Positions 36,385 through 38,568 of a stretch of 52,259 nucleotides of DNA are shown one piece after another. The stretch's first letter is position 1. Every line of letters begins with the position of its first letter. A model generated the notes under the pieces. The model worked only from the letters and a program-made list of their open reading frames with translations. It was not told the origin of the DNA and did not search any database. The translations under genes and the position numbers were made by a program. Source of the stretch: a phage; the NCBI GenBank assembly GCA_025325205.1, contig GCA_025325205.1_4770.1. The stretch is one strand, 5' to 3'.

Positions 36385-38568
36385 TTAAGGAAGATCCTCT
36401 GTTTTAACTAGTTTATTTACAAGTTGTTTCAATTCACTTAGTTCTTGCTCAAGTTCGTTAACTTTATTATTTAAAGTTTTTATTGCAGCTATTGCATCTA
36501 AAAGTAGGACATTTTCATCCAAACAAAGTATTCTTTTATCGCTTCCTGGTGTATTTTCATAACTGCGAATATATTGCGGATCTATCTCCTGTAATTGTTG
36601 AGCAATAAAACCACGTCTAACCTGTTCTTTTTTATCGTTTGTGTATATAAAGCTACAGTATTCCATCTTTTCTATATTACTTAGAGCAATGGAAGTATCT
36701 ATTGCTTTTATATCCCTCTTTAATGTTCTGTCACTATTTGGAGATCTACTAAATACATAGCTTTCTGCACCATCGTTACGGGAAAAAGTAATATCATAAG
36801 TTGTTGAATTAAATGTTGTAATCCTTGTTAGTGCGCCTGTACTTTCCCCGCTCGAAAAATCGTAATCCCAACATTGCACAATTACTGCGTTAGGATGAGC
36901 TTGACCTTCATTAGGATAAATAATAGAACCAAAAGATATAAAGTTGCGCCATCCGCCACCTGTTGTACCAAATCCACCACCAACAATGCCACTATAACCA
37001 GAATACGGGCCGTCTAACCATACCGGAGCTACCTGATACGCGGTTAAATATGTTGCACCTGTTGTTCCAGCCGCACGCATTGCCTTTTTACTTCTTAGAA
37101 TTCCGTTTAACTCAAAATCCCACGACGCTTCAGAACTAGTTTGATAATGCTTTGTAGTTAATCTTGTTAATATTGTTTGTCCGTACCAACCTGTATTTTC
37201 GAAAGTGGAACTATAAACACGTTCGCCGTTTATAGAATAGACAGATTCAATTTTCCCGCCGTTAATCAATAATCCTGCTACGGGCGTAGATGATGCATTA
37301 TTTGTAGCAATACATTCTGTAGTGTTTACACCTTTTGCAAAAGAATCCTCTATATCGGAGACAATCTTTTCTTCAACCCAATGTTTTGTAGTTGCATCCA
37401 TATCCTCTGTAGGATCGCCTGAAAGAGGGGTTGAACCAATAGGTCTTACATTTAGCCATGCAGCAGCGCGGTCTGCTAAATCCGATAAGTTATTTTCAGA
37501 CAGTAGACTCTCGTCTTTTGTTGGCACATTATAACTTTGTCTAAAGTCTTCTTTTGATGCTACTCCAGTGCCTCCGTATTCTACGGTTAAAGGCTTAGGA
37601 CGCCCGTCGCTAACTGTACAACCACCCCATTCATTATTGAGTATACGAAGGGCTATTGAATTATCAGGTGAATACGCTAAAGTTTGTTCTGATAAACTTC
37701 TAAAAGTGTGGATTTTTAGTTGAAATCTTGCTTGATCTTTGTCCGGAAGATCTGAAAGATTATTTTCTTTTAATAACGATTTACTAATAATACCTTCAGC
37801 TTTTCCAGCAGCCACTTCTGCACGCCCAGCGTCTGTAGATGCACTTTGTGCGCTACCAGCCGCATTGCTAGCTTGTTGTCCTGCTTCGGTAGCACTATTA
37901 CTTGCTTGTGCAGCAGACGCAGCAGCAGCATCTTTTAGCGCGGTAGTTTCGGACACAGCGGCGTCCTTAATACCCTGTGTGTCTGCTTTTAACTGCTCAA
38001 CGTCAGATTTTAGACCTTGAATTGTGGTTACAGCTTGTGATGCAGTGTTAGCAGAACCGGCAGCGCCAGCCTGTGCTTGTCTAGCAGCGTCTTCACTAGC
38101 TTTAGCATCATTTTTATAGACAAGTGCATCCGAAGCGGATTGAGCAGCTGAAGCCTTACTATTGCGAGCGTCCGTAGCATCTGCGTTTGCTGCCGCAGCA
38201 GAGCGGCCAGCTTGCAAAGAGTATTCTTCAGAAGCAGCCACAAGTTGTTGAACTTGTTTGATAACATCTGGTGTTAGTTCTTCTTCCACCCAATTAACAA
38301 GATAACCATTAAGTGACCCATCCGGACTATCTGCATATAGGACAATTTCTCCAGCCTTATATGGTTCTTTTCCTTGAGGGCCCACTATAACCACATAGTG
38401 TCCTGGGTTCATTGTGATATTATATGCACCTTGAGGATCTGTACGGAATATCGCTTCGCTACTACCTAACACTATGAGTGTATTACTTCTTGCTATCAAG
38501 GATACGGTTGCATTAACAATAGGTTTATTCAAACCATCTGTTAGGATACCATATAGACGAATTGTCAT
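36385..38568 (-). CDS. tail fiber protein with C-terminal intramolecular chaperone (peptidase S74-like) domain
   Basis: Ala/Ser/Gln-rich repetitive shaft, repeated ENNLSDL(P/A)D motif, C-terminal SDRTLKRDIKAID ... GFIAQQLQEIDP resembling the auto-cleaving chaperone domain; AT-rich distal end. Confidence 0.65.
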   Translation of the reverse strand: MTIRLYGILTDGLNKPIVNATVSLIARSNTLIVLGSSEAIFRTDPQGAYNITMNPGHYVVIVGPQGKEPYKAGEIVLYADSPDGSLNGYLVNWVEEELTPDVIKQVQQLVAASEEYSLQAGRSAAAANADATDARNSKASAAQSASDALVYKNDAKASEDAARQAQAGAAGSANTASQAVTTIQGLKSDVEQLKADTQGIKDAAVSETTALKDAAAASAAQASNSATEAGQQASNAAGSAQSASTDAGRAEVAAGKAEGIISKSLLKENNLSDLPDKDQARFQLKIHTFRSLSEQTLAYSPDNSIALRILNNEWGGCTVSDGRPKPLTVEYGGTGVASKEDFRQSYNVPTKDESLLSENNLSDLADRAAAWLNVRPIGSTPLSGDPTEDMDATTKHWVEEKIVSDIEDSFAKGVNTTECIATNNASSTPVAGLLINGGKIESVYSINGERVYSSTFENTGWYGQTILTRLTTKHYQTSSEASWDFELNGILRSKKAMRAAGTTGATYLTAYQVAPVWLDGPYSGYSGIVGGGFGTTGGGWRNFISFGSIIYPNEGQAHPNAVIVQCWDYDFSSGESTGALTRITTFNSTTYDITFSRNDGAESYVFSRSPNSDRTLKRDIKAIDTSIALSNIEKMEYCSFIYTNDKKEQVRRGFIAQQLQEIDPQYIRSYENTPGSDKRILCLDENVLLLDAIAAIKTLNNKVNELEQELSELKQLVNKLVKTEDLP

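Follow-up and report, generated by a model that had tools for sequence, protein, structure and literature searches.

The stretch of phage DNA analysed here (GenBank assembly GCA_025325205.1, contig GCA_025325205.1_4770.1; 52,259 nucleotides, referred to as the window) is, judged by its sequence, a Nonagvirus (Queuovirinae) genome, that of a 9g-like E. coli phage. Between positions 27000 and 50000 it shares 94% DNA identity with Escherichia phage ChristophMerian (Bas19) across 83% of the length. The gene order is also that of ChristophMerian: a J-type tip protein gene, a DUF6453 gene on the other strand, the lateral tail fibre gene, and then the DNA polymerase and 7-deazaguanine genes. The ChristophMerian gene at the same position, bas19_0021, is annotated as 'lateral tail fiber protein'. 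The position of the window's fibre gene, between the J-type and DUF6453 genes and the DNA polymerase, and its conserved 5' end are those of the Queuovirinae (Nonagvirus) lateral fibre locus. The protein matches PHROG tail-fibre families; a search of NCBIfam returned no family. The features of the gene and its flanks, in the direction of transcription, are as follows.

38574..38579, minus strand: Shine-Dalgarno sequence AAGAGG, 5 nt 5' of the ATG, read from the sequence
36385..38568, minus strand: lateral (side) tail fibre gene, a single open reading frame of 727 codons plus stop
38167..38568, minus strand: lambda-Stf-type N-terminal anchor (collar domain and linker), aa 1-134, matching Pfam phage_tail_N
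37768..38166, minus strand: shaft rich in Ala, Ser and Gln, aa 135-267, 28% Ala
37747..37767, minus strand: first ENNLSDL motif (junction 1), aa 268-274, at a breakpoint of DNA homology
37498..37746, minus strand: middle module, aa 275-357, in the AF2 model a small beta domain, ending in GGTG
37477..37497, minus strand: second ENNLSDL motif (junction 2), aa 358-364, at the start of a Drexlerviridae DNA match
37357..37476, minus strand: conserved neck (ADRAAAWLNVRPIGSTPL...), aa 365-404, nearly identical to part of DT57C LtfA
36736..37356, minus strand: distal domain, beta-rich and rich in Gly, Thr and Ser, aa 405-611, between neck and chaperone
36388..36735, minus strand: intramolecular chaperone (Peptidase S74), aa 612-727, with the Ser612 codon at 36733-36735 and the Lys617 codon at 36718-36720
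36263..36305, minus strand: rho-independent terminator, read from the sequence, with a 10-bp stem (36305-36296 / 36282-36273) and a T-run (36272-36263)

The terminator hairpin lies 80 nt 3' of the fibre gene and has a folding energy of -21.5 kcal/mol (z -6.6), which none of 200 shuffled sequences equalled. Inspection by eye and folding revealed it; the consensus terminator scan did not pick it up because its loop is longer than 8 nt.

The allele combination of this fibre is known only from one E. coli record and about ten metagenomic contigs. The first is an identical NCBI protein, HCO1428393.1, a third-party annotation on a 55-kb contig of the E. coli sequencing run SRR17460945; the others are full-length relatives of 87-92% identity on contigs of 58-60 kb. 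Among 50,697 deposited phage genomes, none covers at least 80% of the fibre gene by DNA. A protein search with aa 400-727 as the query returned seven distant proteins, and the close ones from the first search were not among them.

We consider it very likely that the gene encodes the lateral fibre of a Nonagvirus-type E. coli siphophage and is a patchwork running from a lambda-Stf-type anchor to a self-cleaving S74 chaperone. The anchor covers all 134 positions of the Pfam phage_tail_N profile (PF08400, E 2.9e-21), and it aligns over its first 91 residues with the N-terminal collar of lambda Stf, whose structure is solved (9e7m, E 4.5e-12); this places it in that family. In relatives it occurs in two forms, ~79% or 94-99% identical to that of the window, independently of the distal allele. 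The shaft that follows is probably a trimeric coiled coil. It is at least 90% identical in most Nonagvirus and Seuratvirus fibres, shares 93.6% DNA identity over aa 186-273 with T5-like fibre genes and is weakly similar to the helical region of DT57C LtfA.

The beta core of the middle module is modelled by AF2 with a pLDDT of ~80, and comparison of the fold (aa 275-357) with the PDB gave no match, the best E being 0.69. Protein identities of 75-90% were found only in the ~10 full-length metagenomic relatives. For the DNA encoding aa ~279-328 the phage collection contained no match, even in distant mode, and aa 329-373 are 88-90% identical to the T5-like phages fp01 and HMD-P3. Beyond the second motif the neck is 87-97% identical across Drexlerviridae and Nonagvirus alleles. 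The distal domain, which we presume to bind the receptor, is 91-92% identical in Drexlerviridae fibres and less than 25% in other Nonagvirus alleles, and aligns with the last domain before the chaperone in DT57C LtfA. Comparison with the bullet-shaped receptor-binding domain of T5 pb1 (4uw7) gave an E of 0.34 and a TM of 0.17-0.21 with a weak monomer AF2 model, whose pLDDT ranges from 34 to 88 and stays at 34-60 across much of aa 490-560.

The evidence for a patchwork comes from the places where homology to other phages begins and ends. DNA homology to ChristophMerian and SE1 (Nonagvirus), SA80RD (Seuratvirus) and the T5-like T5_ev212 always stops at nucleotides 819-821 of the gene, that is at aa 273, in the last codon of the first ENNLSDL. 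Up to this point (aa 1-273) the DNA is 82-92% identical to that of ChristophMerian, SE1 and SA80RD. The match to the fibre gene of A134, an unverified record under the name 'Campylobacter phage A134' that NCBI places in Drexlerviridae/Tempevirinae, starts at nucleotide 1071, one base before the second ENNLSDL, and is 93.2% identical over 1083 nt. The A134 fibre has a T1-type N-terminus without similarity upstream of the motif, and its distal 370 residues are those that it has in common with the window's fibre.

The same picture emerges when identities are taken segment by segment. In relatives whose anchor is 97-99% identical the distal parts are unrelated, and in those whose tip is 96-97% identical the anchor is of the 79% form; the Drexlerviridae proteins rise at the second motif from less than 25% identity to 87-92%. 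The 53 proteins that are at least 80% identical in the 40 residues before the first motif continue into nine different downstream sequence families. The module after the second motif is found behind Nonagvirus, Drexlerviridae and, for aa 352-404 (the neck), DT57C LtfA upstream contexts. Even phages with ~94% identical genomes carry unrelated distal fibre parts. No match to the distal module that would point to a prophage origin was found in 5,426 complete E. coli genomes.

These comparisons support the proposal, made in an earlier note on this DNA, that the distal part of the fibre was exchanged horizontally: it is unrelated within Nonagvirus and shares 93% DNA identity with Drexlerviridae. 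That note had linked the exchanged block to an AT-rich stretch at the 3' end of the gene, and this part of the proposal did not hold, the junction lying ~1.1 kb from the 3' end.

The AT-richness itself was correctly seen. The windowed GC calculation gave 0.310 for the chaperone segment (36388-36735) and 0.470 for the shaft, with 0.432 for the whole window. GC is 0.29-0.33 across 36385-36800, and 300-bp windows with a GC below 0.33 occur in only four places, one of which is 36151-36800. That so few places in the window are as AT-rich speaks for a recent foreign segment, its composition marking an exchanged receptor-binding end. We regard that reading as largely refuted, and very unlikely, because these bases code for the chaperone domain, predicted to be removed, or are intergenic, and do not code for the receptor-binding domain; because most of the GC difference is driven by amino acids; and because GC at third codon positions (GC3) is uniform. 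If the codon usage of the remaining 22 large ORFs is assumed, the GC expected from amino-acid content by itself is 0.514 in the shaft and 0.387 in the chaperone, accounting for 0.127 of the gap of 0.16, or ~80%. GC3 is 0.19-0.28 in all six segments of the gene. The block shared with Drexlerviridae, moreover, begins at aa 357, far upstream of the AT-rich bases.

The AT-rich 3' end is thus a chaperone rich in Leu, Lys, Ile, Glu, Asp and Asn, and along the entire gene the third codon positions are rich in AT. We had also considered composition as a sign of transfer, and rejected it because per-segment GC, GC1-3 and expected GC show no step at either junction. Taken over its whole length, the gene has a GC3 of 0.234, and no other ORF of 200 aa or longer is as low (23 ORFs in all, mean 0.394, sd 0.061). 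GC3 is similarly low, at 0.26-0.33 against 0.40-0.50 for the neighbouring genes, in the fibre genes of ChristophMerian, SE1, SA80RD and the Drexlerviridae phage. These low-GC3 fibres sit in phages of 43-44% GC, and their values resemble those of T5-like genes (0.26-0.30). Low GC3 in the fibre genes would be consistent with cassettes drawn from a common AT-rich pool.

The C-terminal motifs that had been likened to an S74-type chaperone, SDRTLKRDIKAID beginning at aa 612 and GFIAQQLQEIDP beginning at aa 653, do belong to such a domain. The profile search identified Pfam Peptidase_S74 (PF13884) at aa 612-666 with an E of 1.2e-12 and 48.3 bits, above the curated cut-off of 22. The solved structures matched by the sequence are DT57C LtfA, the lambda Stf N-terminus and the S16 gp37 chaperone, so that IMC-bearing fibres are among them. 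The predicted fold of aa 612-727, in which a mixed alpha/beta unit leads into a long helix at the very end of the chain, has intramolecular chaperone (IMC) structures as its top matches. Among 45 homologues, Lys617 of the putative catalytic dyad S612-DRTL-K617 is invariant, and at least 90% have Ser612 and Asp613. The S-x4-K spacing of the dyad equals that of Ser1264/Lys1269 in T5 and, by profile alignment, is also that of S16 gp37 and 8jov. We infer autoproteolysis at the predicted site Asn611|Ser612, giving products of 64.6 and 13.4 kDa.

Alternatively, the domain might be a degenerate relic, left uncleaved and forming the tip of the fibre in the virion, and among the relatives chaperone identity does vary somewhat independently of the tip (87% against 94%). 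We think this very unlikely, given that Ser612, Asp613 and Lys617 are in register across the 45 homologues, that the Pfam profile is matched at double its cut-off score and that the predicted fold matches active IMCs. An active, self-cleaving chaperone remains our preferred reading.

The duplication of ENNLSDL had been seen earlier, and proves more informative than the earlier note realised, as both copies coincide with module junctions. They stand at aa 268 and aa 358, 90 residues apart, and when the protein was shuffled 20000 times, an exactly repeated 7-mer turned up in only 22 cases. The linker consensus at both joints is LL-x-ENNLSDL-x-D-x3-A-[RW], and both copies occupy the same positions in homologues, distant alleles included. 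The exact repeat could suggest an internal tandem duplication in this phage with no role in module exchange, and the SE1 fibre, which carries two divergent copies of the middle unit, might be taken to point the same way. Such an origin is highly improbable. The DNA of the copies and their flanks is identical at only 30 of 63 nucleotides and the flanking peptides differ; the motif is therefore a recurring conserved linker peptide and not a recent DNA duplication. The retention of both positions in distant alleles and their location at homology breakpoints also argue against duplication within this phage. The SE1 locus is annotated as two CDS, the first of which ends after the two middle-unit copies and is followed by a second protein.

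A recurring linker at the joints raises the question of how far the peptide itself is involved in exchange. We suggest, tentatively and as a possibility on which we would not yet rely, that LL-x-x-NNLSDL-x-D-x3-A-[RW] peptides are dedicated, conserved linkers at which lateral-fibre modules have repeatedly recombined among Queuovirinae, Drexlerviridae and T5-like Demerecviridae, and that the low GC3 of the fibre genes (0.23-0.32) reflects cassettes circulating in, or coming from, a common AT-rich T5-like gene pool. The breakpoints against several relatives could in part stem from a single ancestral event and not from the motif having been used many times. A literature search on the NLSDL motif found nothing, and the coincidence of junctions with NNLSDL linkers is not stated in the literature searched.

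By analogy with T5 pb1 and the K1F endosialidase, and with the Stf-type anchor at its other end, the fibre would work as follows. The N-terminal collar and anchor (aa 1-134) would fix the fibre trimer to the tail tip region. Three chaperone domains would trimerise and template the folding of the distal domain, and once the trimer had folded correctly, Ser612, activated by Lys617, would cut the Asn611-Ser612 bond. The 13.4-kDa chaperone would then leave, and the 64.6-kDa mature chain would expose the distal domain. This domain may bind a surface glycan reversibly (probably O-antigen or LPS) and so accelerate adsorption; the J-type central fibre would engage the terminal receptor afterwards. As the comparisons show, the anchor and shaft are common to the Queuovirinae, with part of the shaft also common to T5-like phages, and the neck, tip and chaperone are common to T1-like Drexlerviridae at 93% DNA identity, the modules being joined at the two copies of the conserved linker peptide. 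That the protein is an enzymatic tailspike, a depolymerase or esterase rather than a simple binding fibre, is highly improbable, as searches of Pfam, NCBIfam and PHROGs revealed no catalytic domain, the distal domain has only ~200 residues and the closest solved relatives are fibre proteins.

The fibre loci of Queuovirinae and Drexlerviridae are known to be conserved only at their far 5' end, divergence in the Queuovirinae loci setting in close behind the 5' end of the first gene; O-antigen has been proposed as the primary receptor (Maffei et al. 2021, PMC8594841). The BASEL Queuovirinae fibres, such as those of ChristophMerian (Bas19) and FritzHoffmann (Bas20), have the same locus and synteny as the window's gene, with a conserved 5' end and a variable remainder. 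T5-like tips with chaperones have been described as spreading by horizontal transfer (Humolli et al. 2025, PMC11990801). In DT57C, pfam13884 cleavage sites were predicted in LtfA and LtfB, and host range was switched via recombination within ltfA (Golomidova et al. 2016, PMC4728585). Mosaic fibres of this kind have thus already been described, and the window's gene is a further allele, with a lambda-type anchor joined to a T5/T1-type tip and chaperone. Since side fibres determine which O-antigen types a phage can reach, the boundaries at aa 274/275 and 357/358 and the predicted cleavage at Asn611|Ser612 are useful as splice points for host-range engineering in 9g-like, T1-like and T5-like phages. 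Beyond these splice points, the result confirms earlier descriptions for these phage groups.

Among solved structures, the best sequence relative is LtfA of the T5-like phage DT57C (PDB 8HQZ chain d; profile E 5.5e-68). The two proteins have a nearly identical neck (aa 352-404 against LtfA 528-580), a homologous last domain and chaperone, and an Ala-rich helical shaft. The profile alignment shows ~200 additional residues in LtfA that separate its neck from its last domain. LtfA also carries a second fibre protein, LtfB, whereas the fibre of the window consists of one unbranched polypeptide and is anchored differently. The DNA for the distal 370 residues of the window's fibre is 93% identical to that of a Tempevirinae (Drexlerviridae) fibre.

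The other end of the protein resembles lambda Stf (PDB 9E7M/9MGH), which has a homologous N-terminal collar followed by a linker and a coiled-coil shaft. The Stf tip, in contrast, is T4 gp37-like with no S74 domain described, whereas the window's fibre has an S74 chaperone. For its assembly lambda Stf has a separate chaperone, Tfa. In Ur-lambda, the N-terminal residues of Stf form a collar on the tail, with a flexible linker to the coiled-coil shaft (PMC12617516).

The T5 L-shaped fibre pb1 (PDB 4UW7/4UW8) likewise has a C-terminal domain with an intramolecular chaperone, and differs in being 1396 aa long against 727 and in its LtfC-dependent lasso, where the window's fibre has a lambda-Stf-type anchor. 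In the T5 active site Arg1250 of the neighbouring chain and Asp1239 have been described as further residues, and the T5 mutant S1264A forms a trimer that folds and stays uncleaved. The C-terminal intramolecular chaperone of the K1F endosialidase (PDB 3GW6) is the founding member of Peptidase S74. There its passenger is a sialidase tailspike, in contrast to the small non-enzymatic tip of the window's fibre.

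Across its whole length (36385-38568, minus strand) the fibre gene has a GC3 of 0.234, the minimum among the 23 large ORFs (at least 200 aa) of the window, whose mean is 0.394. In related phages (Nonagvirus, Seuratvirus and Drexlerviridae) the fibre genes have low values too (0.26-0.33), with adjoining genes at 0.40-0.50. The GC3 of T5-like genes is similar to that of these low-GC3 fibre genes. The following fibre genes of relatives entered the GC3 comparison:

L001:7976-9877, a related phage
L002:7263-9167, Drexlerviridae phage A134
L003:1483-3796, Salmonella phage SE1
L005:3001-5181, a related phage

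The annotation splits the SE1 fibre locus into two overlapping CDS, of 430 aa and 355 aa. The second has Glu, rather than the Lys of the usual S-x4-K pattern, five residues past the Ser (SDIRLE).

Downstream of the fibre gene lie a phrog_9288 gene and a phrog_7239 gene:

35443-36150, minus strand, phrog_9288 protein, 235 aa, directly 3' of the fibre gene
34181-34450, minus strand, phrog_7239 protein, 89 aa, function unknown

The phrog_9288 protein, for which the Pfam search returned no match, has an N-terminus rich in Gly and Trp (GGGGGWGGWGG), a CCC cluster and, at its C-terminus, PTPPTPPTGCCG. Both SE1 and the Seuratvirus SA80RD have this protein; ChristophMerian lacks this gene and the next three (34181-35377), and has two small genes in their place. 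A homologue of the phrog_7239 protein, 61% identical, is encoded in A134 (L002:9526-9810), also just 3' of the fibre gene, and the GC3 of the window's phrog_7239 gene is likewise low (0.278).

One further gene, divergent to the fibre and convergent to J, separates the fibre gene from the J-type tip gene:

38679-39650, plus strand, DUF6453 gene (E 9.6e-131; PHROG 'membrane protein, moron')

Its start is likely to be the ATG at 38685 rather than the GTG at 38679.

The 'Campylobacter phage A1xx' records (MG065663.1 and four sisters) carry an UNVERIFIED flag, and A134 (MG065663.1), the only one of them inspected, is classed by NCBI as Drexlerviridae/Tempevirinae. The Campylobacter host label of these records looks doubtful, because their lateral fibre is of the coliphage type.

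The AT-richest stretch of the window is elsewhere, at 7250-7750, where GC is 0.26-0.30 across about 500 bp and ORFs longer than 84 aa are absent. Situated upstream of the gene at 7745-8365, this stretch may serve in regulation or as an origin.
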